The notes below the pieces were generated by a model. The model made no database searches. It saw only the letters and a list, made by a program, of their open reading frames with translations, and had not been told where the DNA came from. The translations under genes were made by a program, and so were the position numbers. A DNA stretch of 60,537 nt from Escherichia coli (GTDB lineage Bacteria > Pseudomonadota > Gammaproteobacteria > Enterobacterales > Enterobacteriaceae): NCBI RefSeq assembly GCF_003334255.1, contig NZ_QOWU01000027.1; one strand, written 5' to 3'. Position 1 is the stretch's first letter, and every line of letters begins with the position of its first letter. Shown piece after piece: positions 29,406 through 60,537 of this stretch.

Positions 29406-30842
29406 TCAGCGTTTGTAACCCCCGCCCAACGCACCAGTGAGTTGAATGGAGGCATCCAGCCACTGCCCTTGCAATAACAGGCCATTGGCCCGCTCACGCA
29501 GCGCGGGGATTCTGGCTTCGCTGACGCGGGAACCAGCAATGATGCCCGCGTTAAAGCGCGCCTGCGCAAGACCTACCACACGCAAGGCATCGCGCTCAAT
29601 TTGCGCCTGATGCTGGTTTTTCTCCGCCAGTGTCTGAACCTGACTGGCTGCCCGCGCCACGTCATTCACCGCTTCAACCACCGCTTTGTTGTAGCTGGCG
29701 ATAGACAAGTTGCTTTCGGCTTTTGCGATATCGAGATTGGCGTTAAGACGACCACTATCGAAAATGGGTAGCGTCAGGCCTGCCGTAACGCCCATTTGCT
29801 GCGCGGAATGACGGAACAGATCGCTTAAGTGCAACGCATCCTGTTGCAGGAAGGCCATCAGGTTGATGTCAGGATAAAATGCCGCTTTTGCCGCATCAAT
29901 GGTGCTTAGCGATGACTCAACGTACCAGTGCGCCGCCTGCAAATCTGCCCGCCGGGCCAGTAAGGAGTACCCCAGTTCATCAGGAAGCTGGCTTGCCACT
30001 TTCGGCAACGCGACCGGTTTAAGCTTCAATGACTTTGTCTGGTTATTTGTAAGTGCGCTTAACCGTGCCTCAATAATTTTCATTTTCCCCGCGACATCGT
30101 TGAGCTGCTGCCGGGTTTTGCTGGCATTAATATCGGTTTCCACACCTTCAACTGAAGAAGTAATCCCGTTCTGATATAGCTGGCGATCGGTCGCGATAAT
30201 GGTGTTCTGCTCTTTTTCTATTTGCTGCAAGACCGTGTTTAACGCCGCCTGGGTTTGCCACTCCCAGTACAGGCGGGCTACGCTGCCAGCCAGCAATTGG
30301 CGGGTTTGCTCGCGTTCCGCCGCCCGTGCTTTAACCGTACCCAGGCGGGCAGTAACCTCCGCCCGATTCTTTCCCCAGATATCGAGATGCCAGCCCGCCG
30401 TTAAGCCAAAAGTACCGTTGGTGTACCACGGGCCGGTCGTACCTGCGGCCGGATCGTTCAGAGCAAACGGCCCCATTAAGCCTTCTGCCGACATTTTTTG
30501 CCGCTCCATATCCGCCGAAAAGTCGATCTGCGGACCATCCTGAGTGGCAACTGCCTTCGCCTGGGCTTCAGCTAGCTGAATGCGCTGTTCAGCCACCTGC
30601 ATATCCGGTGCGTTCTGTAGTGCATTGTTAATTAAGGAAGTGAGTTGATTATCGTGATACTCCAGCCACCATTGGCTGTCTGGCCAACCATTTTTCAGCG
30701 CCGTGGGTAATGCGGTGTCAACTTGTGCAGCGGGCGTTTGCTGGCTTAACGCCTGGCGGGTTTCATGCATAGGCGCACACCCGGCCAGCATCAGTAACAG
30801 CGGAAAACAGGCGATGGCTGGATAAAAGGAATCACGATTCAT
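29406..30842 (-). CDS. mdtQ: MdtQ, OprM/TolC-type outer-membrane efflux lipoprotein; reads as an intact 478-aa frame here
   Basis: ORF track 29406..30932 (-) is one uninterrupted frame; start trimmed to ATG 30842 (MNRDSFYPAIACFPLLLMLAGC, lipobox). Confidence 0.85.
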   Translation of the reverse strand: MNRDSFYPAIACFPLLLMLAGCAPMHETRQALSQQTPAAQVDTALPTALKNGWPDSQWWLEYHDNQLTSLINNALQNAPDMQVAEQRIQLAEAQAKAVATQDGPQIDFSADMERQKMSAEGLMGPFALNDPAAGTTGPWYTNGTFGLTAGWHLDIWGKNRAEVTARLGTVKARAAEREQTRQLLAGSVARLYWEWQTQAALNTVLQQIEKEQNTIIATDRQLYQNGITSSVEGVETDINASKTRQQLNDVAGKMKIIEARLSALTNNQTKSLKLKPVALPKVASQLPDELGYSLLARRADLQAAHWYVESSLSTIDAAKAAFYPDINLMAFLQQDALHLSDLFRHSAQQMGVTAGLTLPIFDSGRLNANLDIAKAESNLSIASYNKAVVEAVNDVARAASQVQTLAEKNQHQAQIERDALRVVGLAQARFNAGIIAGSRVSEARIPALRERANGLLLQGQWLDASIQLTGALGGGYKR

Positions 30843-31065
30843 GGGGGAATAATCAGGTAAGAAAAGGTGCGCGGAGATTACCGTGTGTTGCGATATATTT
30901 TTTAGTTTCGCGTGGCAATACATCAGTGGCAATAAAACGACATATCCAGAAAAATATACACTAAGTGAATGATATCTTCCGATTTATCTTAATCGTTTAT
31001 GGATAACGGCAAAGGGCTTCGTTTTTTCCTATACTTATTCAGCACTCACAAATAAAGGAACGCCA

Positions 31066-46861: not shown

Positions 46862-48852
46862 TCAGAAGCGATAATCCACTGCCATAAAGTAACGACGTCC
46901 GTCTTCGTTATAGCTGTAGTCGTCACGACTGAGATCCTTGTCGCCAAGGTTCAGCACGCCTGCGCGCAGTTTGACGTCTTTAGTCACCTGCCAGGCCGCG
47001 CCGGTATTCCAGATGGTATAACCGCCCGGTGTTTTAGCCGTCGCGCTGTCGGCGCGTTTCTGCCCGGTATAGTGCCCAGAAACATAGAATGACCAGTCTT
47101 CCAGCGCCAGCGGTTTCCAGTCCAGCGTACCGTTAGCAGTATGGAACGGCAGATCGGATAGCGGTTTGTTTTCGCCGTTGCTGACATCACGACCATCGTT
47201 GTAGGTGTAGTTGATCGACAGTTTCCATTCATCGTTGAACGGAATTTTCAGTTCGGTTTCCACGCCCTGAATACGAGCTTTGTTAACGTTGTAGTAGCTA
47301 AATACCGGTATGCGCCGTCCGTTAGCGCCCGTCTCAAAACCAACAAAGTTTTGGTAGCCCGGTGCAGCGTTGACGTCAGACGTACGGCTGATGCTGATAC
47401 GATCTTTCACATCGTTACGGAAAACGGTAACGCTGGATTCAACCCCTTCCAGCCAGCCTTCTTCACCCATGTAGTAAAGCCCCAGCTCCCAACTTTCGCT
47501 GGTTTCTGGTTTCAGATCCGGGCTACCCACAATCTTACATGCGCCACGGCAGGAATTGCTCGTCCAGTCAGGGCTAAGTTGCAACAGAGAAGGTGCTTTA
47601 AATGCCGTCGCCCAGCCCCCTTTCACCGTTACGGTGTCGGTGGCGTTATAAACCAGGTAGGCACGCGGACTCCAGTGTTCACCGTAGGTTTCGTGATCGT
47701 CCATACGCACGCCGGTCGTCAGCGCCAGCGGCTCGAAGATCCGCCATTCATCTTCCACAAACAGCGCGTACTGGCTGGCAGACGTTTTGGAGCTGGTTCC
47801 CCCGGTCAGGTTCACCGCATCGCTAAGTTTGTCGTGACGCCATTCACCGCCAACCGTGAGAAACTGATTAATCGCCGTCAGCGGCAACGTGTATTTGCCG
47901 TCGACCGTATTGCTTTCGGAAGTTATCGGGCTGCTGTTGCCAGGGTTTTTGTTCTCGACTTTCTCACCGTAGTATTTCAGTTCGCTGGTGCCGTAATCCC
48001 AACGCCCATTATGGCTGACGGAGTAGTTCTGGCGTTCCAGGCGGTTTTTGTCCAGCGAGTCGGAATCACGATCCTGACGGTCGAAACCGTATCCGGCAGT
48101 AAAATCGTGATTTTGATTCGGTGTCCAGGCAAATTCGACATTGCCGTGCGGCTGGAGAATCCTTCAATACGCGGCGTTTCTCCGGTATCGGTGGTCGTTG
48201 AGTTTTGCGGGTCATCCTTTTCACGTTTTGCCAGGCTGCCGTAAGCTTTCATTCCCAGCACACCATCAATTAATGGTCCACTGGTAAAGAACTGACCGTT
48301 ATAGGTGTCACCGCGATCGCGATGTTCCTGAATGGTGGTATCGACGGTAACGGTACCCGACCATTTCTGACCGATTTTTTTGGTGATGATATTCACTACA
48401 CCGCCGAGCGCATCGGAACCGTACAGCGACGACATCGGGCCACGGACCACTTCAATACGTTCGATGGAATCGACCGGGATCCAGTTCAGATCGAAATCAT
48501 TGTGGCGGAAGACGGCATTGCGGGAGTTCACGCGTTTACCGTCGACGAGAATCAGGGTATAGCTGCTGTCCAGACCACGAATACTAACGCCCTTACGGTT
48601 ATCCCCTTCGTTCGTCAGTTGTACGCCAGGCACTTCTTTGAGGACATCCTTCAGATTCTGTACCGGTTTTCGCTGCAGGTCTTCCTGGGTAATGACGCTG
48701 ATACTGGCAGGTGCATCTTTAAGATTTTGTTCCACGGAAGATGCAGTGACAACCATCGTTTCGCCATCATCATCGACCGCTAACACAGGCCATGCACAAG
48801 AAATAGCGGACAAACACAGCCCGACCCGTACGAAAGGGTTCAACCTAAACAT
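46862..48852 (-). pseudogene. cirA: cirA (TonB-dependent catecholate siderophore / colicin I receptor) disrupted by a single-base frameshift
   Basis: Two minus-strand ORFs (47977..48852, N-terminal; 46862..47887, C-terminal ending ...AVDYRF) in different frames. Total span is 1991 nt, one short of the 1992 nt needed for a 663-aa protein plus stop. Both frames are open across ~48130-48150; a missing base near 48137/48138 restores [15 protein letters not shown]... Confidence 0.85.
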
Positions 48853-49022
48853 TCCATATCTCCATGAGGTAACTACGAAAATAAAATGGGTTATCGCTCA
48901 CATCTTCTTCACGTCCCCTTGCGTACGGCAGCATCGCGGTGGACTTATTTTTTATGCAGGTGATCATCCCAGAAAGCCGGAACAGCCTCTGATTTGTCAG
49001 CCTTTTTTGATTGCGGCGTAAC

Positions 49023-49049
49023 GATAATGCAAACGATAACAATTATCAA
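49023..49049 (-). promoter_or_regulatory. Fur box(es) upstream of cirA
   Basis: Minus-strand sequence TGATAATTGTTATCGTTTGCATTATCG holds overlapping GATAAT/ATTATC hexamers typical of Fur operators, ~170 bp upstream of the cirA ATG. Confidence 0.6.
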
Positions 49050-49096
49050 TCCAAATGTTAAATTTTATATCCGCATGATTTGTCAGGGAAATGGAA

Positions 49097-49126
49097 TTGA
49101 AAAAGCCCTCTCGGTTGAGAGGGCTT
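49097..49126 (-). terminator. Rho-independent terminator of lysP
   Basis: Minus-strand hairpin AGCCCTCTC-AACC-GAGAGGGCT (9-bp stem) followed by TTTTTCAATT, ~20 nt downstream of the lysP stop. Confidence 0.8.
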
Positions 49127-49145
49127 AGCAAGGAAGGGAGGAAAC

Positions 49146-50615
49146 TTATTTCTTATCGTTCTGCGGGAACTTCATTTCGCTGTAGCGTACGAAGTGAGTT
49201 CCTTTAATCAGCTTGTAGCCGAACCAAATAATCAGGAACAGCGGGATACCAATATACGTTGCCGCTACGCCGCCCCAGTCAATAGTATCTTTCAGGAACG
49301 CTTCGTAGTTCTGGCCCAAAGTGATAATCAGACACAGAATGAATGCGAAGATCGGCCCCAGTGGGAAGAAACCTGAACGGTACGGCAGATCGTTAATGTC
49401 GTGTCCCTGCAATACGTAACCGCGACGGAAGCGATAGTGGCTAATGGCAATCCCCAGCCAGGCGATAAAACCCGTCATCCCGGAGGTGTTCAGCAGCCAC
49501 AGGTATACCGTCTGGTTGCCAAACATGGAGGTCAGGAAGCACAGACCGGCAATCACCGTCGTCGCATACAGCGCATTACGCGGCACGCCACCACGCGACA
49601 GTTTAGCGAAAATGCGCGGCGCTTTACCGTCACACGCCAGGGTGTACAGCATACGAGTAGACGCATACATACCGGAGTTACCCGCTGACAGCACCGCCGT
49701 CAGAATAACTGCGTTCATCACCGCCGCCGCAGAGAGCAGACCCGCGTGCTGGAACACCAGGGTGAACGGACTAACGCTGATGTCTTTAACATCGTTACGC
49801 AGCAGGCTCGGATCGGTGTACGGAATAATCAGGCTGATAATCAGGATCGCGAACACATAGAACAACAGGATTCGCCAGAACACCTGACGTACCGCGCGTG
49901 GAATGTTTTTCGCCGGATCTTCGGACTCGCCTGCAGCAATACCGATCAGCTCGGTTCCCTGGAAAGAGAAGCCGACAATCATAGCTACGCCGATCATCGC
50001 CGCAAAACCACCAGCAAACGGCGCTTCGCCGATTGTCCAGTTGCTCCAGCCCGCAGGCTGCGCGCCTTTGAAGATACCGATAATCATCAGCACGCCAACG
50101 ATGATAAAGACAATAACTGTCGTGACTTTGATCAGTGAGAACCAGTATTCCGCTTCACCAAAGCCACGAACTGAGATGTAGTTCAGCAGGAAGATAACGC
50201 CGAGGAACAACGCACTCCAGATCCAGCCCGGTGTATCCGGGAACCACCAGCTCATGACCAGCTGAGCTGCAACCAGGTCAACGGCGATAGTCACCGCCCA
50301 GTTGTACCAGTAGTTCCAGCCCAGCGCGAAGCCAAAGCCTTCTTCAACATAGTTCTGACCGTAAGTGGCAAACGAACCGGAAACCGGCATATATGCAGCC
50401 AGTTCACCGAGACTGGTCATCAGGAAGTAAACCATCAGGCCAATCAGCATATACGAGAGCAATGCCCCGCCCGGACCTGCCTGAGAAATCGTTGCGCCAG
50501 AGGCAACAAAAAGACCTGTACCGATGGAACCGCCAATGGCAATCATCGTCAGGTGACGCGCCTTTAATTCACGGCGTAAGCCCGGCGCTTCTGTGGTTTT
50601 AGTTTCGGAAACCAT
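49146..50615 (-). CDS. lysP: LysP, lysine-specific permease, APC family (489 aa)
   Basis: ORF 49146..50615 (-). Confidence 0.93.
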   Translation of the reverse strand: MVSETKTTEAPGLRRELKARHLTMIAIGGSIGTGLFVASGATISQAGPGGALLSYMLIGLMVYFLMTSLGELAAYMPVSGSFATYGQNYVEEGFGFALGWNYWYNWAVTIAVDLVAAQLVMSWWFPDTPGWIWSALFLGVIFLLNYISVRGFGEAEYWFSLIKVTTVIVFIIVGVLMIIGIFKGAQPAGWSNWTIGEAPFAGGFAAMIGVAMIVGFSFQGTELIGIAAGESEDPAKNIPRAVRQVFWRILLFYVFAILIISLIIPYTDPSLLRNDVKDISVSPFTLVFQHAGLLSAAAVMNAVILTAVLSAGNSGMYASTRMLYTLACDGKAPRIFAKLSRGGVPRNALYATTVIAGLCFLTSMFGNQTVYLWLLNTSGMTGFIAWLGIAISHYRFRRGYVLQGHDINDLPYRSGFFPLGPIFAFILCLIITLGQNYEAFLKDTIDWGGVAATYIGIPLFLIIWFGYKLIKGTHFVRYSEMKFPQNDKK

Positions 50616-50819
50616 ACAAAAATGCTATCCATCTTAAAAATGAGGCGCGATTGTAGCAGACGATTGGCAATCCTTCCGGCAGAAATACACGGTTATAAGA
50701 CACCTTCATGATCGCCCAGGGATTATAAGTAAAGCAGCCAATCTCTTTTCTGGCGAATGCATGCTGAAGGCGCTGCGTCACGAAATCGACACAGCACCAG
50801 CATGTTCTTGTACAGCAAC

Positions 50820-51701
50820 TTAACGCGGCACATTTGCGGGATCGCAATAGTCCAGAAAGCGCCGTAGCGCGTTGGAAAGGTGTTTTTGCCGATGATGTAT
50901 ACGCCACAACGTACGCATCAGGCGCGGCAGAGGGACCGCAACTTCACTTAATGTGCCTGCCTGCAATTGATCTTCAATCACACGTCGCGACAGGCAACTA
51001 ATTCCCAACCCATGACGCACCGCATGTTTGATTGCCTCGGAGTTACCTAATTCCATCGCCATCTCAAACTTCGGTAAATGTGACAGCAACAGATAATCGA
51101 CAATCTCCCGCGTGCCGGAACCGCGTTCACGCAGGATCCACGGCGCAGCGGCCAGCTGTTCTAAGGTGACCGGACCACGGGCCAACGGCGAAGTCGGCGC
51201 GGCGAAAACCACCAGCTCGTCTTCCAGCCACGGTTCAGAAATGATTTCAGTGCTGTGGCACGGTCCTTCAATAAAGCCAATATCAACGCGGAAATCCAGC
51301 ACCGCTTGCATCACGTCCTGGCTATTCCCAACGCTAAGTTCAATCGGCAACTGCGGATAATCATGGCGATAACGGGCGATAACTGCAGGCAGAATGTAGT
51401 TACCGATGGTACTACTGGCATAGATACGAATCGCGCCGTTGTCTTCGCGAAACAGTTGTTCGATTTCAACCGCCTGTTCAAGCAATGCCAACGCACGCGG
51501 ATAGAGCAGCCGCCCGTGTTCATTAACAACCAGTCTTTTCCCCACGCGATCAAACAGTTGCACGCCAAGCTGCCCTTCCAGGTCGGTCAAGGCTGCGCTC
51601 ACTGCTGATTGCGACAACGCCAGCATCACCGACGCCTGGGTGGTTGATCCACTTTTCAATACTTCTGCAAAAACTTCCAACTGCCGGAGGGTGATGTGCA
51701 T
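50820..51701 (-). CDS. yeiE: YeiE, LysR-type transcriptional regulator (293 aa)
   Basis: ORF 50820..51701 (-); N-terminal LysR HTH; divergent from yeiH. Confidence 0.92.
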
Positions 51702-51799
51702 AGTCGCTTACCACTTATAAAGATTAATTATAAATATATAATCAATTTTATTTTTAAACCAGTTAGTCGTAACCTTATGCCCGGTTAAAGGAGAGGGTT

Positions 51800-52849
51800 A
51801 TGACGAATATCACCTTACAGAAACAACATCGTACACTGTGGCATTTTATTCCGGGGTTAGCCCTGAGTGCAGTTATCACCGGGGTCGCCCTGTGGGGTGG
51901 TTCCATTCCCGCGGTTGCGGGTGCCGGGTTTAGTGCCCTCACCCTCGCAATCTTGTTGGGGATGGTTTTAGGCAACACCATCTATCCGCACATCTGGAAA
52001 AGCTGTGACGGTGGTGTGCTGTTTGCCAAGCAATATTTATTACGTCTGGGTATCATTCTTTATGGCTTCCGTCTGACGTTCTCGCAAATTGCCGATGTCG
52101 GTATCAGTGGGATCATCATTGACGTGTTGACGCTGTCCAGTACCTTCCTGCTGGCTTGCTTCCTGGGGCAGAAAGTGTTTGGTCTGGATAAGCACACCAG
52201 CTGGTTGATCGGTGCCGGTAGCAGTATCTGTGGTGCTGCCGCGGTACTGGCGACTGAGCCGGTAGTGAAAGCGGAAGCCAGTAAAGTAACCGTGGCTGTT
52301 GCAACCGTTGTTATCTTCGGGACCGTCGCGATTTTCCTCTACCCGGCGATATATCCGCTGATGTCTCAATGGTTTAGTCCGGAAACTTTCGGTATCTACA
52401 TTGGTTCTACTGTGCACGAAGTGGCGCAGGTGGTGGCGGCAGGTCATGCCATCAGCCCGGATGCGGAAAACGCAGCAGTTATTTCCAAAATGCTGCGCGT
52501 GATGATGCTGGCTCCGTTCCTCATCCTGCTGGCGGCGCGTGTTAAACAGCTGTCTGGGGCGAACAGCGGCGAGAAAAGCAAAATCACTATTCCGTGGTTT
52601 GCCATCTTGTTCATCGTAGTTGCCATCTTTAACTCGTTCCACCTGTTACCGCAGAGCGTGGTGAACATGCTGGTAACGCTGGATACCTTCCTGCTGGCAA
52701 TGGCGATGGCGGCGCTGGGTCTGACCACTCACGTCAGCGCGCTGAAAAAAGCTGGGGCGAAACCTCTGCTGATGGCACTGGTACTGTTTGCCTGGCTGAT
52801 TGTTGGTGGTGGTGCGATTAACTATGTGATTCAAAGCGTCATCGCATAA
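51800..52849 (+). CDS. yeiH: YeiH, UPF0324-family inner membrane protein (349 aa)
   Basis: ORF 51800..52849; GGAGAGGG SD upstream. Confidence 0.9.
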
Positions 52850-52922
52850 ACCACTACATCTTGCTCCTGTTAACCCGCTATCATTACCGTTTTCCTCCAG
52901 CGGGTTTAACAGGAGTCCTCGC

Positions 52923-53780
52923 ATGAAATACATTGGAGCGCACGTTAGTGCTGCTGGCGGTCTGGCAAATGCCGCAATTCGCGCCGCCGAAATCGACGCA
53001 ACCGCGTTTGCCTTGTTCACCAAAAACCAACGTCAGTGGCGTGCCGCACCGCTCACGACGCAAACCATCGATGAATTCAAAGCCGCCTGTGAAAAATATC
53101 ACTACACATCGGCGCAAATTCTTCCCCACGACAGTTATCTGATTAACCTCGGACATCCGGTCACTGAAGCTCTGGAAAAATCGCGCGATGCCTTTATAGA
53201 TGAAATGCAGCGTTGCGAACAGCTGGGGCTTTCTTTGCTCAACTTCCACCCTGGCAGCCATCTGATGCAGATTTCAGAAGAGGATTGCCTTGCGCGTATT
53301 GCCGAATCCATCAACATTGCGCTGGATAAAACTCAAGGTGTGACAGCGGTGATAGAAAACACCGCCGGTCAGGGCAGTAACTTAGGGTTTAAATTCGAAC
53401 ATCTCGCGGCGATTATCGACGGCGTGGAAGATAAATCCCGCGTCGGCGTCTGCATTGATACCTGCCATGCTTTCGCTGCCGGGTATGATTTGCGTACTCC
53501 AGCCGAATGCGAGAAAACATTCGCGGATTTTGCCCGTACTGTCGGCTTTAAGTATCTGCGCGGGATGCACCTTAACGATGCGAAAAGCACCTTTGGCAGC
53601 CGCGTTGACCGCCATCATAGCCTCGGTGAAGGCAATATCGGTCATGATGCGTTCCGCTGGATCATGCAGGACGACCGTTTCGACGGCATTCCGCTGATCC
53701 TCGAAACCATCAACCCGGATATCTGGGCAGAAGAGATCGCCTGGCTGAAAGCGCAACAAACTGAAAAAGCGGTAGCCTGA
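52923..53780 (+). CDS. nfo: Nfo, endonuclease IV (285 aa)
   Basis: ORF 52923..53780 ([13 protein letters not shown]...). Confidence 0.93.
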
Positions 53781-53782
53781 AG

Positions 53783-54871
53783 ATGAATAACCGGGAAAAG
53801 GAGATCCTTGCAATTTTACGGCGTAACCCGCTGATTCAGCAGAACGAAATTGCGGACATGCTGCAAATCAGCCGTTCGCGCGTTGCGGCGCATATTATGG
53901 ATTTAATGCGCAAAGGCCGGATTAAAGGCAAAGGTTACATTCTCACCGAGCAGGAATACTGCGTAGTGGTGGGGACAATCAATATGGATATTCGCGGGAT
54001 GGCGGATATCCGTTACCCGCAATCGGCTTCTCATCCCGGTACAATTCATTGCTCAGCGGGCGGCGTGGGACGCAACATCGCCCACAATCTGGCGCTGTTA
54101 GGCCGTGACGTCCATTTGCTTTCAGTGATTGGCGATGACTTTTATGGCGAAATGCTCCTGGAAGAAACGCGCCGTGCCGGCGTGAATGTCTCCGGCTGCG
54201 TTCGTTTGCATGGTCAAAGCACATCGACGTATCTGGCAATTGCCAATCGAGACGATCAAACCGTGCTGGCGATTAACGATACCCATCTGCTGGAACAGTT
54301 GACACCGCAACTACTGAACGGGTCGCGCGATTTACTTCGTCATGCGGGCGTGGTACTGGCTGATTGCAACCTGACAGCCGAGGCGCTGGAATGGGTCTTT
54401 ACCCTCGCTGATGAAATCCCGGTGTTTGTCGATACCGTTTCAGAATTCAAAGCGGGCAAAATCAAACACTGGCTGGCGCATATTCACACCCTGAAACCCA
54501 CTTTACCGGAGCTGGAAATTTTATGGGGACAGGCGATCACCAGCGATGCTGACCGTAATACCGCAGTGAATGCATTGCATCAGCAAGGTGTTCAGCAACT
54601 GTTTGTTTATTTGCCCGATGAGTCAGTTTATTGCAGCGAAAAGGATGGAGAACAATTTTTGCTGACCGCGCCAGCGCATACGACAGTAGACAGTTTTGGT
54701 GCTGACGATGGTTTTATGGCGGGCCTGGTATATAGCTTTCTTGAAGGATACAGTTTCCGCGACAGCGCCCGTTTTGCGGTAGCCTGCGCGGCAATTTCGC
54801 GCGCCAGCGGCAGCTTAAACAACCCTACCCTGTCTGCCGATAACGCGCTTTCATTAGTGCCAATGGTGTAA
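53783..54871 (+). CDS. yeiI: YeiI, PfkB-family sugar kinase with N-terminal HTH domain (362 aa)
   Basis: ORF 53783..54871, starting 2 nt after the nfo stop. Confidence 0.9.
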   Translation: MNNREKEILAILRRNPLIQQNEIADMLQISRSRVAAHIMDLMRKGRIKGKGYILTEQEYCVVVGTINMDIRGMADIRYPQSASHPGTIHCSAGGVGRNIAHNLALLGRDVHLLSVIGDDFYGEMLLEETRRAGVNVSGCVRLHGQSTSTYLAIANRDDQTVLAINDTHLLEQLTPQLLNGSRDLLRHAGVVLADCNLTAEALEWVFTLADEIPVFVDTVSEFKAGKIKHWLAHIHTLKPTLPELEILWGQAITSDADRNTAVNALHQQGVQQLFVYLPDESVYCSEKDGEQFLLTAPAHTTVDSFGADDGFMAGLVYSFLEGYSFRDSARFAVACAAISRASGSLNNPTLSADNALSLVPMV

Positions 54872-54877
54872 CAATGT

Positions 54878-54970
54878 TGCCGGATGCGACGCTTAACGCG
54901 TCTTATCCGGCCTACAAATCAGGCAATTTCAGCAAGTAAATGTAGGCCTGATAAGCTTGCGCATCAGGCA
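54878..54970. repeat. REP elements (two units)
   Basis: GCCGGATGCGACGCTTAACGCGTCTTATCCGGCCTACAAA and inverted GTAGGCCTGATAAGC...GCATCAGGC between yeiI and nupX. Confidence 0.85.
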
Positions 54971-54977
54971 ATGACAC

Positions 54978-56228
54978 TCAAGCTAAACCAATAAAGAACC
55001 CGGCAATGGTCGCACTCATCAAGTTGGAAAGCGTCGCCGCCGCCAGCGCCCGTAAACCAAGCTGGGCGATTTCCGGCGCACGGTGTGGCGCAACCGCAGA
55101 AAACGCCCCCACCACCACCCCGATAGAACCAAAGTTAGCGAAACCGCACAACGCGAAGGAAATAATCGCCACAGTTTTAGCATCGAGAGTGCCAGCCGTT
55201 TGCAGATAGGGTGAGAAATTGAGATAAGCGACAAATTCATTTATTGCCAGTTTCTGTCCAATCAAACTCCCGGCAAGATTCGCATCACTCCAGTCCACAC
55301 CCATCACCCACGCCAGTGGAGCCAGCAGGTAACCTAAAATGGACTCCAGCGAGGCATGTTCAAAACCAAACCAGCCACCAACGCCGCCGATAATACCGTT
55401 AATCAACGCAATTATTGCAACAAATGCCATCACCACTGTTGCCACACCTGCGGCGATTTTCAGCCCGGTCATTGCCCCTGTCGCAGCGGCTTCAATAATG
55501 CTTTTTGGCGGTGTTTCGGTGAAAGAGAGGTTATTAAAGGAAACCTGCGAAGATTCCGTTGCCGGGCTTAACAGGCGGGCAAACAAGATCCCGCCAGGGA
55601 TCGCCATTAATGATGCCGCCAGCAGATATTCCACAGGCACGCCCAGTGCGGCGTAACCAATCATTGTCGAACCAGCAATCGAGGCCATGCCACTACAAAT
55701 CGCTGTAAATAATTCATTGCGATTCAGACGATCGATAAAGGGTTTGACGATTGCCGGAATTTCGTTTTGCCCGAGGAAAATGGTGGTGACCGCGACGAAT
55801 GACTCGATCTTGCTGATATTTAATGCTTTCTGGAAGATACCGCCGAGAATTCGAATTAAAATCCCCATCACACCGATGTAGTAGAGAATACTCACCAGCG
55901 CGGTGACGAAGATAATTGCCGGTAACACCCTGAAACCAAAGATAAATCCTGCACCATCAAATAAGGTATCCATTTTCGGTCCGACCAGAGAACCGAAGAT
56001 AAATGCGCTACCCGCGTCGCTGTACGCCATCACTTTATGCACGCCAAAAGCGACTTTTTCAGCGACCCAACGCCCTGGCGGTAACCAAAGCATAATGCCG
56101 CCAATCACGACCTGTAACACTAACGCCGCGCCAACGGTACGCAGGCTGATCTTCTTCTTGTTTACTGACAGTAAAAACGCAATCGTCAGCAATACCACCA
56201 TTCCCAGAACACTTCTCATGACATCCAT
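54978..56228 (-). CDS. nupX: NupX, NupC-family (CNT) nucleoside transporter (416 aa)
   Basis: ORF 54978..56228 (-); near-identical paralog of psuT in this window. Confidence 0.92.
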   Translation of the reverse strand: MDVMRSVLGMVVLLTIAFLLSVNKKKISLRTVGAALVLQVVIGGIMLWLPPGRWVAEKVAFGVHKVMAYSDAGSAFIFGSLVGPKMDTLFDGAGFIFGFRVLPAIIFVTALVSILYYIGVMGILIRILGGIFQKALNISKIESFVAVTTIFLGQNEIPAIVKPFIDRLNRNELFTAICSGMASIAGSTMIGYAALGVPVEYLLAASLMAIPGGILFARLLSPATESSQVSFNNLSFTETPPKSIIEAAATGAMTGLKIAAGVATVVMAFVAIIALINGIIGGVGGWFGFEHASLESILGYLLAPLAWVMGVDWSDANLAGSLIGQKLAINEFVAYLNFSPYLQTAGTLDAKTVAIISFALCGFANFGSIGVVVGAFSAVAPHRAPEIAQLGLRALAAATLSNLMSATIAGFFIGLA

Positions 56229-56327
56229 AGTGATTATCTCTTCATGTCATATTGGGCGACGGCTTTCTGCCCATCAGAAATAGCCAGGCCTGCATCTTGC
56301 GATACCGGCCCGGCTTGTTATCAACAC

Positions 56328-57269
56328 TTAATGGGTTTTGATGTAGCCGCGCACGCACTCTTCGACTAATCCCCAGAACCAGTCTGTATCAATAGTGATG
56401 CCGACTTTGGTATTGGCGGGCTTGCCAAGAACGCCCAGCTCGTCGCAGACGGTACGCCCATAGCAAGGGCCACTGTTGACGTCCACTTCGACGTACATCT
56501 CCTGGGTTTTAATGCCATCAGGGTTAATCAGATAACCGATGCAGGTGGCGTCGTGCACCGGGCCGCCAGCAAGGCCGTAGTTTTCGAACTGCGTTTTGAG
56601 AGTGAAGTTCATGATGTCGCTGAACAGCTCTCCGGCGGGGCCGCCTGCCCTTTCCATCCGAGCAATCACGTCCGGGGTGCAAACGGTCTGGTTGGTGAGA
56701 TCGAGGCCCATCATCACTAATGGAACGCCGGAGGTGAACACTACGCGTGCGGCTTCCGGGTCGGCAAAGATGTTGAACTCGGCAGATGGCGTGAAGTTGC
56801 CTGTACCGTAAGCGCCGCCCATTAGCACAATTTCACGGATTTTGGGCAGGATCGCGGGTTGCATACGCATTGCCACCGCGATATTTGAAAGCGGACCAAC
56901 CGGCACCAGAGTGATATCGCCATCGCTTGCCATCAGGGTATCAATGATATATTTCACCGCATGAGTGCTTTCTGCCTGGCGGGTCAGCGGCTCGAATACC
57001 GGGCCATCCAGTCCGGTTTCACCGTGAATATTATCGGCAACGATTTGTTGACGCATAATGGGCTGCGGCATCCCCGCATAAACCGGAACATTAATCTCCA
57101 GTTTCTGGCAAACATTCAGGCCATTAATTAATGTTTTATCAAGCGTCTGATTACCCGCTACAATAGTGATGCCTAATAAATCTATTGCCGGATGTTTCGC
57201 CGCCATCATTATAGCAATAGCATCATCATGACCCGGATCACAATCCAGAATAATTTTTCTCTTTTCCAT
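56328..57269 (-). CDS. rihB: RihB, pyrimidine-specific ribonucleoside hydrolase (313 aa)
   Basis: ORF 56328..57269 (-); N-terminal DxDxxxDD motif (DCDPGHDD). Confidence 0.92.
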
Positions 57270-57437
57270 TGTTTATTTCCTCTGTTTCCAGTTGCGTTAT
57301 TTTTTCTACAGCAAAGAAAATTCGACCGGGCCGATGATTGAATCTTAACAACAGCGTACGTATGCTAAATATGAGAAATCTCATAGCGGATAAACATCGT
57401 GAAAGAAATCCACAATAATGATCTTAAGCAGCAATTG

Positions 57438-58097
57438 ATGAGTGAATCCGCGTTTAAGGATTGCTTTTTAACGGATGTTTCAGCCGATACGCGGCTGTTT
57501 CATTTTTTAGCGCGTGACTACATTGTGCAGGAAGGGCAACAGCCGTCCTGGCTGTTTTACCTGACGCGAGGCCGCGCCAGGCTTTACGCCACGCTAGCTA
57601 ATGGTCGCGTGTCGCTGATCGATTTCTTTGCCGCCCCCTGTTTTATTGGCGAGATTGAGTTAATCGATAAAGACCATGAACCGCGTGCGGTGCAGGCTAT
57701 TGAAGAGTGTTGGTGCCTTGCGCTCCCTATGAAACATTACCGTCCGCTGTTATTAAACGACACGCTATTTTTACGAAAACTCTGCGTCACCTTAAGTCAT
57801 AAAAATTATCGTAATATTGTTTCTTTAACTCAGAATCAATCATTTCCGTTAGTGAATCGCCTGGCAGCATTTATATTACTCTCGCAGGAAGGTGATCTTT
57901 ATCACGAAAAGCATACGCAAGCGGCAGAGTATTTAGGCGTTTCTTATCGACATCTTTTATATGTTCTCGCGCAGTTCATTCACGACGGTTTATTAATTAA
58001 AAGCAAGAAAGGGTATCTCATTAAAAACAGAAAGCAGTTGTCAGGACTGGCGCTGGAGATGGACCCGGAGAATAAATTCTCCGGGATGATGCAGTAA
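57438..58097 (+). CDS. yeiL: YeiL, CRP/FNR-family transcriptional regulator (219 aa)
   Basis: ORF track 57399..58097; start ATG 57438 ([10 protein letters not shown]). Confidence 0.88.
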
Positions 58098-58119
58098 AAA
58101 TTATTTTCAATAGCGCGAT

Positions 58120-58160
58120 TGCCGGATGCAACGCTTAATACGTTTTATCCGGTCTACAAA
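58120..58160. repeat. REP element
   Basis: GCCGGATGCAACGCTTAATACGTTTTATCCGGTCTACAAA between yeiL and psuT. Confidence 0.8.
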
Positions 58161-58167
58161 TCGAGCA

Positions 58168-59418
58168 TTACGCCAGACCAATAAAGAACCCGGCAATAGT
58201 CGCACTCATCAGGTTGGAAAGCGTTGCTGCTGCCAGCGCCCGTAAACCAAGCTGGGCGATTTCCGGCGCGCGTTTTGGCGAAATAGCCGAAAATGCGCCA
58301 ACGACAACACCGATAGAACCAAAGTTAGCAAAACCACAAAGCGCAAAGGAGATAATCGCAATGGTTTTCACTTCCAGCGTGCCGCCCGTTTGCAGGTATG
58401 GGGAGAAACTCAGGTAAGCGACGAATTCGTTAATCGCCAGTTTCTGCCCAATCAGGCTACCCGCAAGATTGGCATCACTCCAGTCCACACCCATGATCCA
58501 CGCCAGCGGTGCCAGCACATAGCCAAAAATACTTTCCAGAGAGGCATTGGCGAAACCAAACCAGCCGCCAATTCCGCCGATAATGCCGTTGATCAGCGCA
58601 ATAATTGCGACAAACGCCATTACCACCGTCGCCACACCAGCGGCGATTTTTAGCCCGGTCATCGCACCGCTCGCCGCCGCTTCGATAAAGCTTTTTGGCG
58701 GCGTTTCGCTGAACGACAGATTTTCAAATGTGACCTGCGAAGGCTCGGTTGCCGGGCTAAGAATACGTGCAAACAAAATCCCGCCAGGGATCGCCATCAG
58801 CGATGCCGCTAACAGGTAGTCAATTGGTACGCCCATTCCGGCATAACCAATCATCATCGAACCAGCAATGGACGCCATCCCGCTACAAATTGCGGTAAAC
58901 AACTCGTTGCGATTCATGCGATCGATAAACGGTTTAACGATCGCCGGGATCTCATTTTGCCCGAGGAAAATAGTAGTAACCGCAACAAAAGATTCGATTT
59001 TGCTGATGTTGAGGGCTTTCTGGAAAATGCTGCCAAGGATGCGAATCAGCAGCCCCATCACGCCAATGTAGTACAGCAGACTGATGAGCGCAGTAACGAA
59101 AATAATCGCCGGAAGTACGCGAAAGGCGAAGATAAAACCCGCACCGTCAAACAGGACATCCATTTTCGGCCCAACCAGCGAACCAAAAATGAAGGCGCTA
59201 CCGGCATCACTGTAAGACATCACTTTATGAACGCCTAATGCCGCCTGTTCTACTGCCCATTTTCCCGGTGGGAAGTAGAGCATGATGCCACCAATAGCGA
59301 TTTGCAGCAGCAGTGCGGCTCCAACCGTGCGCAAACTGATGCTCTTTTTATTCACTGACAACAGAAATGCTATTGCCAGTAACACCACCATCCCCACAAC
59401 ACTTCTCATTATATCCAT
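58168..59418 (-). CDS. psuT: PsuT (YeiM), NupC-family putative pseudouridine transporter (416 aa)
   Basis: ORF 58168..59418 (-). Confidence 0.92.
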   Translation of the reverse strand: MDIMRSVVGMVVLLAIAFLLSVNKKSISLRTVGAALLLQIAIGGIMLYFPPGKWAVEQAALGVHKVMSYSDAGSAFIFGSLVGPKMDVLFDGAGFIFAFRVLPAIIFVTALISLLYYIGVMGLLIRILGSIFQKALNISKIESFVAVTTIFLGQNEIPAIVKPFIDRMNRNELFTAICSGMASIAGSMMIGYAGMGVPIDYLLAASLMAIPGGILFARILSPATEPSQVTFENLSFSETPPKSFIEAAASGAMTGLKIAAGVATVVMAFVAIIALINGIIGGIGGWFGFANASLESIFGYVLAPLAWIMGVDWSDANLAGSLIGQKLAINEFVAYLSFSPYLQTGGTLEVKTIAIISFALCGFANFGSIGVVVGAFSAISPKRAPEIAQLGLRALAAATLSNLMSATIAGFFIGLA

Positions 59419-59511
59419 AATGATTTTCCCTTCATGCCGGTAAACCCGGCGTCAGCGCCAGGTTTTGGTATGCTTGATGAGTACGGGCGACGGCTTTCTG
59501 CCCGTCAGAAA

Positions 59512-60450
59512 TTAACCCGCGAGACGCTGATATTCTTTGGCAATTTCGCTCGCCAGAATGGCGTTGTTGAACACCAGCTGGATGTTGGATTTCAGGCTGT
59601 CACCGCCGGTCAGTTCAGCAACGCGCGCCAGCAGGAATGGCGTACTTTCTTTACCAATGACTCCCTGAGCTTCAGCTTCAGCTACCGCCTGATCGATCGC
59701 CGCATTGATAGTGTGTTCCGGCATAGCAAACTGTTCCGGGATCGGGTTCGCTACCACGAGGCCACCGTTCAGACCGCTTTGCCATTTCACCGCCATTGCA
59801 CGGGCAATTTCGCTGGCGCTGTCGAGACGAATGCTGACGTCAAACGGGCTGGTGCGGCAGAAAAACGCAGGCAGCGCTTTAGTCTGATAGCCAATTAACG
59901 GCACACCGAAGGTTTCTAAATACTCAGTGGTTAATCCTAAATCGAGAATAGATTTCGCCCCGGCACAAACAACGGTGACATTAGTATTTGCCAGTTCTTG
60001 CAAATCGGCAGAAATATCGAAGGTATGTTCCGCCCCGCGATGCACACCACCAATTCCCCCGGTGGCAAATACTTTAATTCCGGCAAGCGCCGCAATAATC
60101 ATCGTTGAAGCCACAGTGGTTGCGCCATTTTTTCCGGCGGCAACAACAAAAGGTAAATCGCGACGACTAACTTTGGTCACGTTATGCCCTTCACGACCCA
60201 GTAATTCAATTTCTTCTTTGCTTAACCCCACTTTCATCACGCCGCCAATAATGGCGATCGTGGCAGGTACAGCGCCCTGTTTACGAATAGTTTCTTCAAC
60301 TTCAATTGCGGTCTGGGCATTTTGTGGGAACGGCATCCCGTGAGAAATAATGGTCGATTCCAGCGCCACAACCGGTTTTTTGTTTTTTAAAGCGTCCTGC
60401 ACTTCCGGGGAAATTTGTAATAATTCAGGGGAAATTTTTAATTCAGACAT
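59512..60450 (-). CDS. psuG: PsuG (YeiN), pseudouridine-5'-phosphate glycosidase (312 aa)
   Basis: ORF track 59512..60474 (-). Start trimmed to ATG at 60448-60450 (MSELKISPEL); the track's extension uses a TTG that lies inside IS1 sequence. Confidence 0.9.
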   Translation of the reverse strand: MSELKISPELLQISPEVQDALKNKKPVVALESTIISHGMPFPQNAQTAIEVEETIRKQGAVPATIAIIGGVMKVGLSKEEIELLGREGHNVTKVSRRDLPFVVAAGKNGATTVASTMIIAALAGIKVFATGGIGGVHRGAEHTFDISADLQELANTNVTVVCAGAKSILDLGLTTEYLETFGVPLIGYQTKALPAFFCRTSPFDVSIRLDSASEIARAMAVKWQSGLNGGLVVANPIPEQFAMPEHTINAAIDQAVAEAEAQGVIGKESTPFLLARVAELTGGDSLKSNIQLVFNNAILASEIAKEYQRLAG

Positions 60451-60460
60451 TCTGCGTTCT

Positions 60461-60537
60461 GGTGATGCTGCCAACTTACTGATTTAGTGTATGATGGTGT
60501 TTTTGAGGTGCTCCAGTGGCTTCTGTTTCTATCAGCT
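60461..60537 (+). mobile_element. insA: IS1 left terminal inverted repeat and start of insA (window-truncated)
   Basis: GGTGATGCTGCCAACTTACTGATTTAGTGTATGATGGTGTTTTTGAGGTGCTCCAGTGGCTTCTGTTTCTATCAGCT matches the canonical IS1 end and the beginning of insA (GTG GCT TCT GTT TCT ATC AGC = MASVSIS). Begins 10 bp upstream of the psuG ATG. Confidence 0.88.

Follow-up and report, generated by a model that had tools for sequence, protein, structure and literature searches.

The colicin I receptor of Escherichia coli, CirA, is also a TonB-dependent transporter of Fe-catecholates. Its barrel of 22 strands is closed off by a plug at the N-terminus, its extracellular loop 2 comprises mature residues 210-231, and R436 and R490, in loops 7 and 8, are among its contacts with colicin Ia and microcin V (PMC12511343). 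Its receptor role for colicin Ia and microcin V is described in the same paper and in its references 35-36. Catecholates of the dihydroxybenzoylserine type are also taken up via CirA, and a cirA deletion mutant of MG1655 has been used, and complemented, in colicin Ib competition (PMC3879352). Truncations of cirA recur in cefiderocol-resistant, NDM-producing E. coli ST167, where a small indel in the gene leads to a premature stop and to a predicted CirA deficiency, as in the allele described here; loss of cirA adds to cefiderocol resistance mainly when NDM and PBP3 changes are present (PMC12457464, PMC10319620). Disrupted alleles from Klebsiella and Enterobacter (PMC8579844, PMC12054181) resemble it in the gene affected, in mutational class and in the predicted deficiency, and for K. 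pneumoniae there is a genome-wide survey of incomplete CirA (PMC12054181).

The window analysed here, a single stretch of 60,537 nt, is collinear with K-12 MG1655 from 78 to 60460 (K-12 2197994-2258377). In the K-12 annotation cirA (b2155) lies between yeiG and lysP, and the window carries its cirA at the same place, on the minus strand at 46862-48852. This gene was compared base by base with cirA of NC_000913.3 (2244778-2246769, 1992 nt). It is 1991 nt long, and over its whole length the lone difference is that codon 236 (GAC, Asp) has lost its first base, the G at CDS position 706. Where K-12 reads AGC CGC GAC GGC AAT the window reads AGC CGC ACG GCA ATG, and re-insertion of the G restores 100% identity. 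With its position between yeiG and lysP kept, and 1991 of 1992 nt identical, the gene is an orthologue of cirA. The region upstream is the same in both strains, and from 48148 to 59792 the window has no differences from K-12. That the rest of cirA and the upstream region are unchanged points to a recent inactivation.

The allele is designated c.706delG, p.Asp236ThrfsTer57. It specifies 235 native residues followed by 56 aberrant ones, ie a product of 291 aa compared with 663 aa in K-12. Two minus-strand open reading frames, in different frames, now occupy the gene (Table 1): one of 291 aa (47977..48852), which starts with the ATG at 48852 and has the N-terminus MFRLNPF, and one of 341 aa. The native C-terminal frame stays open over 48163-46862; the 3' part is intact in sequence, yet ribosomes would no longer enter it in the correct frame. 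An earlier, sequence-only reading of this DNA had described cirA as 1991 nt long and one base short, through a change of GCGACGG to GCACGG, and had predicted a non-functional CirA from a frameshift after ...GFSSR. The K-12 comparison bears out both the single-base loss and the motif, and the reading frames, together with the profile scores given below for the two fragments, agree with the prediction. Two details needed correction: the base is missing 10 nt away from the position proposed (~48137/48138), and the aberrant tail has 56 codons rather than 55.

Table 1. Coordinates of the parts of the cirA locus in the window.
Feature	Coordinates	Strand	Remarks
cirA 5' part, native frame, codons 1-235	48148..48852	-	signal peptide, TonB box, plug and first barrel strands; identical to K-12
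Deletion site, c.706delG	48147..48148	-	the two bases that flank the missing G
Out-of-frame tail, 56 aberrant codons ending ...APAN, and stop TGA (47979-47977)	47977..48147	-	from frame translation and the K-12 comparison
cirA 3' part, rest of codon 236 to codon 663, and stop	46862..48147	-	no differences from K-12; barrel strands 4-22, loops 2-11
Residual 341-aa ORF, TTG start, no signal peptide	46862..47887	-	reported by gene callers as a separate 'TonB-dependent receptor' fragment
cirA upstream region (promoter, leader) to the lysP stop	48853..49145	-	same as K-12

Structures of K-12 CirA are 2HDF, 2HDI and 9NN6. In an alignment with the 639-residue chain of 2HDF, the structure of the colicin I receptor, residues 26-235 of the truncated product are 100% identical to residues 2-211, and the match ends there. 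As loop 2 starts at mature residue 210, and the match ends at 211, about 19 of the strands are missing. By this alignment the product is predicted to retain the signal peptide, the TonB box, the plug and about three of the 22 strands, and to lack about 19 strands, loops 2-11 and the C-terminal end, ...DYRF. Translation would start normally and the signal peptide would direct export; the ribosome would leave the native frame at mature residue 211, at the start of extracellular loop 2, and would stop 56 codons later. Without the ...DYRF end and most of the strands the product would be unable to form an outer-membrane barrel, leaving the cell without CirA. This is the fate that we infer for the truncated protein.

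Both pieces were scored against the NCBIfam equivalog NF007478 (catecholate siderophore receptor CirA), which has a cut-off of 745 bits. The 291-aa product reaches 513.6 bits over profile positions 1-237, and the 341-aa fragment reaches 735.8 bits over positions 323-663, compared with 1460.1 bits for intact K-12 CirA. Since each piece falls below the cut-off, the gene is predicted to be null; the DNA is that of a cirA orthologue, and no product encoded by it passes as a complete CirA. Pfam Plug matches the 291-aa product, and in loci retrieved from public assemblies (L004-L013) TonB_dep_Rec_b-barrel is found on the separate 341-aa gene. Thus the plug and a complete 22-stranded barrel, which a functional TonB-dependent transporter combines in one exported polypeptide, do not occur together.

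The frequency of the allele was examined first in 5,426 complete RefSeq genomes of E. coli, where neither a query with the whole gene nor an 81-nt probe across the site found an exact match to the deletion allele. The probe aligned at 81/82 with one gap in all 5,421 genomes that cover the site, and the best full-length single-piece cirA matches among the complete genomes all span 1992 nt. The extra base in those 5,421 genomes also disposes of the idea, raised with the original observation, that reference alleles might have the same length as the window's. Given this absence from complete genomes an artefact was suspected at first; the exact protein was then found in many draft and metagenome assemblies. 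By exact-protein look-up (ENA, Logan) at least 22 contigs, from public assemblies with unrelated accessions, encode the 291-aa product, and in each the 341-aa barrel fragment is called directly after it. The sources include ERR589767, ERR1948968, ERR3469164, SRR31098083, SRR31098095, SRR31654386, ERR14045506, ERZ19210862 and ERZ2857xxxx; they are ENA metagenome assemblies and Logan assemblies, ie the allele is supported by draft and metagenome assemblies only. The 291-aa protein also has the NCBI accessions CUJ89108.1 and CAM3173898.1. Taken together, these observations make it highly probable that the missing base is a real single-base deletion, that cirA is here a recent null allele and that no CirA is made. 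Most simply, the deletion would be a heritable allele in a circulating lineage which is K-12-like at the cirA locus.

The allele could have a single origin, or the same deletion could arise repeatedly, at a hotspot under selection by colicins, phages or antibiotics. The deletion-bearing contigs are not all identical, four of them (L005, L007, L011 and L013) having 10-13 SNPs relative to the window over 5-17 kb, with four clustered SNPs inside the cirA of L013. Inspection of the sequence itself shows the site to lie within a small inverted repeat (GCCG-CGA-CGGC), and the recurrence of disruptive pressure on cirA is evident from the at least 1000 contigs that carry the 341-aa C-terminal fragment. 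Against several origins, all the deletion-bearing loci have a K-12-like haplotype in common, and cirA is identical to that of the window in seven of the ten retrieved loci, the other three having one private SNP. The 13 extra SNPs of L007 (SRR31098083) and L013 (ERR14045506), found over 5-11 kb and mostly transitions, match no known intact haplotype, the best complete genomes being no closer to them than the K-12 type. Independent origins on standing intact haplotypes, considered as the source of these SNPs, are for that reason unsupported; a mutator sub-lineage, a noisy assembly or a mixture of strains in the metagenomes are possible sources. We regard repeated origin as unlikely, and one origin with later private changes, or metagenome contigs that are chimeric or noisy, appears to fit better. 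The distinctive YehI variant of the window is widespread, with 181 blocks in the public assembly collection, and greatly outnumbers the deletion, so that the deletion probably marks a sub-branch within a commoner lineage.

It could also be argued that the base was lost in sequencing or assembly and that the cirA of the strain is intact. The window does resemble a short-read draft contig, its two ends being pieces of IS421 and of IS1A of exactly 77 nt each, the base is present in every complete genome that covers the site, and errors in a consensus commonly take the form of single-base indels. Such errors concentrate in homopolymers, however, and the deleted G (CGC|GAC) is outside any homopolymer. 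A systematic artefact at this site would also be expected in some of the 5,426 complete genomes. The identical frameshifted protein comes from unrelated projects, and two isolate-like contigs (L008 and L009) match the window at 100% identity over 10.4-10.6 kb; a third (L006) differs from it by one base over 16.3 kb. The recurrence of the same truncated protein on so many unrelated contigs, at a site that is not a homopolymer, makes a one-off assembly error distinctly improbable, and the statement in the sequence-only reading that the frameshift could equally be such an error gives that option too much weight, in view of the deposits in NCBI and the unrelated runs.

Rescue of a real deletion by ribosomal or transcriptional recoding, or by assembly of separately made halves, is very unlikely on the evidence of the sequence, indeed close to negligible: both halves are open and unchanged, and in FhuA a plug and a barrel that are exported separately can complement one another, but the stretch from the deletion to the stop was searched for the marks of a programmed frameshift, and it has no slippery heptamer (X XXY YYZ), no A/T run longer than five and no other long slippage tract, its longest runs being AAAA, TTTT and AAAAA. 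The first start in the C-terminal frame is the TTG at 47887, which has no evident Shine-Dalgarno sequence and gives a product without a signal peptide, and native codons 236-322 (about 87 residues, the next barrel strands after the first three) are supplied by neither half.

Complete genomes represent the lineage of the window poorly, the first 20 kb of the window reaching at best 99.4% identity to any of them. Many complete genomes of ST167 are available in RefSeq. With ST167 so well sequenced, the lineage of the window is probably not ST167. The position of its lesion also differs from that of the ST167 allele, codon 236 compared with a frameshift at S90 (PMC12457464, PMC10319620), and c.706delG was not found in the E. 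coli cefiderocol papers examined, in which the positions given are others, S90 among them. Among complete genomes, strain 268.2 has IS1 in cirA, and strains EC4, XJW9B277 and DETEC-E223 have IS elements in or beside the gene. Compared with disrupted alleles of this kind (insertions of IS1, ISVsa5 and IS150, and other frameshifts) the outcome is the same, and the lesion of the window differs from the insertions in being a point deletion. The identical 341-aa C-terminal fragment (window 46865-47887) that is called separately on at least 1000 public contigs, which include complete chromosomes and an O25b:H4 record, implies that disruption of cirA upstream of codon 323 is widespread in E. coli; the deletion allele of the window accounts for only about 11-22 of these contigs. 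The allele adds a new position to a class of lesion that is well known, and inactivation of cirA is recurrent and well documented in Enterobacterales. Selection by colicins, microcins or phages, or drift, is as possible a cause as antibiotic selection.

Several other features of the window were recorded in the comparison with K-12. The window opens with the end of an IS421 (IS4/IS186 family) at 1-77 and closes with the left end of IS1A at 60461-60537, each exactly 77 nt long, and K-12 has neither insertion at those two places. Equal overhangs of 77 nt suggest a draft contig from a de Bruijn graph with k=77 that breaks at repeats. The IS1 junction (60460/60461; K-12 2258377) falls within the final codons of psuK, some 10 nt ahead of where psuG starts, and the insertion probably clips the C-terminus of PsuK and separates psuG-psuT from the upstream psuK promoter. 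The genes nupX (54987-56246) and psuT (58177-59436) are paralogous nucleoside transporter genes with about 79% DNA identity, as they are in K-12, and represent an ordinary feature. Divergence from K-12 is sharply mosaic: about 340 of 345 differences lie in the first ~20 kb, from yehH to yehX, and the remaining 40 kb has about six, a pattern that would fit a recombination boundary near 19.8-21 kb. Compared with K-12, where mdtQ is annotated as a pseudogene, the window has an additional T at 30691 within this gene (29406-30932, minus strand); a 508-aa ORF is open across mdtQ, which appears to be intact in this strain. In yehH, also a pseudogene in K-12, there are two single-base gaps relative to K-12 (at 1403 and 1922), and a 618-aa ORF is open at 127-1983, up to the IS421 junction region; the relatives L014 and L016 have an uninterrupted 1141-aa WGR/DUF4132 gene at this place.

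The expected phenotype follows from the loss of a receptor. CirA is both receptor and translocator for colicins Ia/Ib and microcin V, so that its loss would give resistance directly, and the strain should be insensitive to all three. Uptake of catecholates of the dihydroxybenzoylserine type that depends on CirA should also be lost, and the entry of catechol-conjugated beta-lactams such as cefiderocol should be lower. The other catecholate receptors, Fiu and FepA, are encoded outside the window and may compensate for iron uptake. The sequence-only reading had expected resistance both to the colicins and some microcins and to siderophore-conjugated antibiotics. As regards colicins Ia/Ib and microcin V, that expectation is upheld by the receptor role of CirA (PMC3879352, PMC12511343); as regards cefiderocol it does not hold for loss of cirA alone, deletion of the gene in ATCC 25922 having left the MIC of cefiderocol no higher (PMC10319620). 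Susceptibility to cefiderocol should be lowered only in combination with other determinants, mainly NDM or PBP3 changes. The full resistance genotype consists of NDM, PBP3 YRIN/YRIK and loss of cirA, of which only cirA lies in the window, ftsI and any plasmids being outside it, and no resistance genes were found within the 60,537 nt.

Transcription and the signal peptide appear intact, so that export of the plug under iron limitation is possible. An exported, soluble plug with a TonB box might then titrate periplasmic TonB under iron limitation and damp all TonB-dependent uptake, a suggestion to which we give very little credence. If it were true, the allele would protect more widely than a simple deletion of cirA, ie against colicins, microcins, phages and siderophore-drug conjugates, which could help to explain why it persists in a gut lineage that is present in several isolates and metagenomes of unrelated origin.

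The deletion reveals no new mechanism, and the exact truncated protein is already in public databases. Its value for this isolate lies in annotation, where cirA should carry a pseudogene flag, and in prediction of phenotype: the strain would be one step nearer to cefiderocol non-susceptibility if NDM or PBP3 changes are present or are later acquired.
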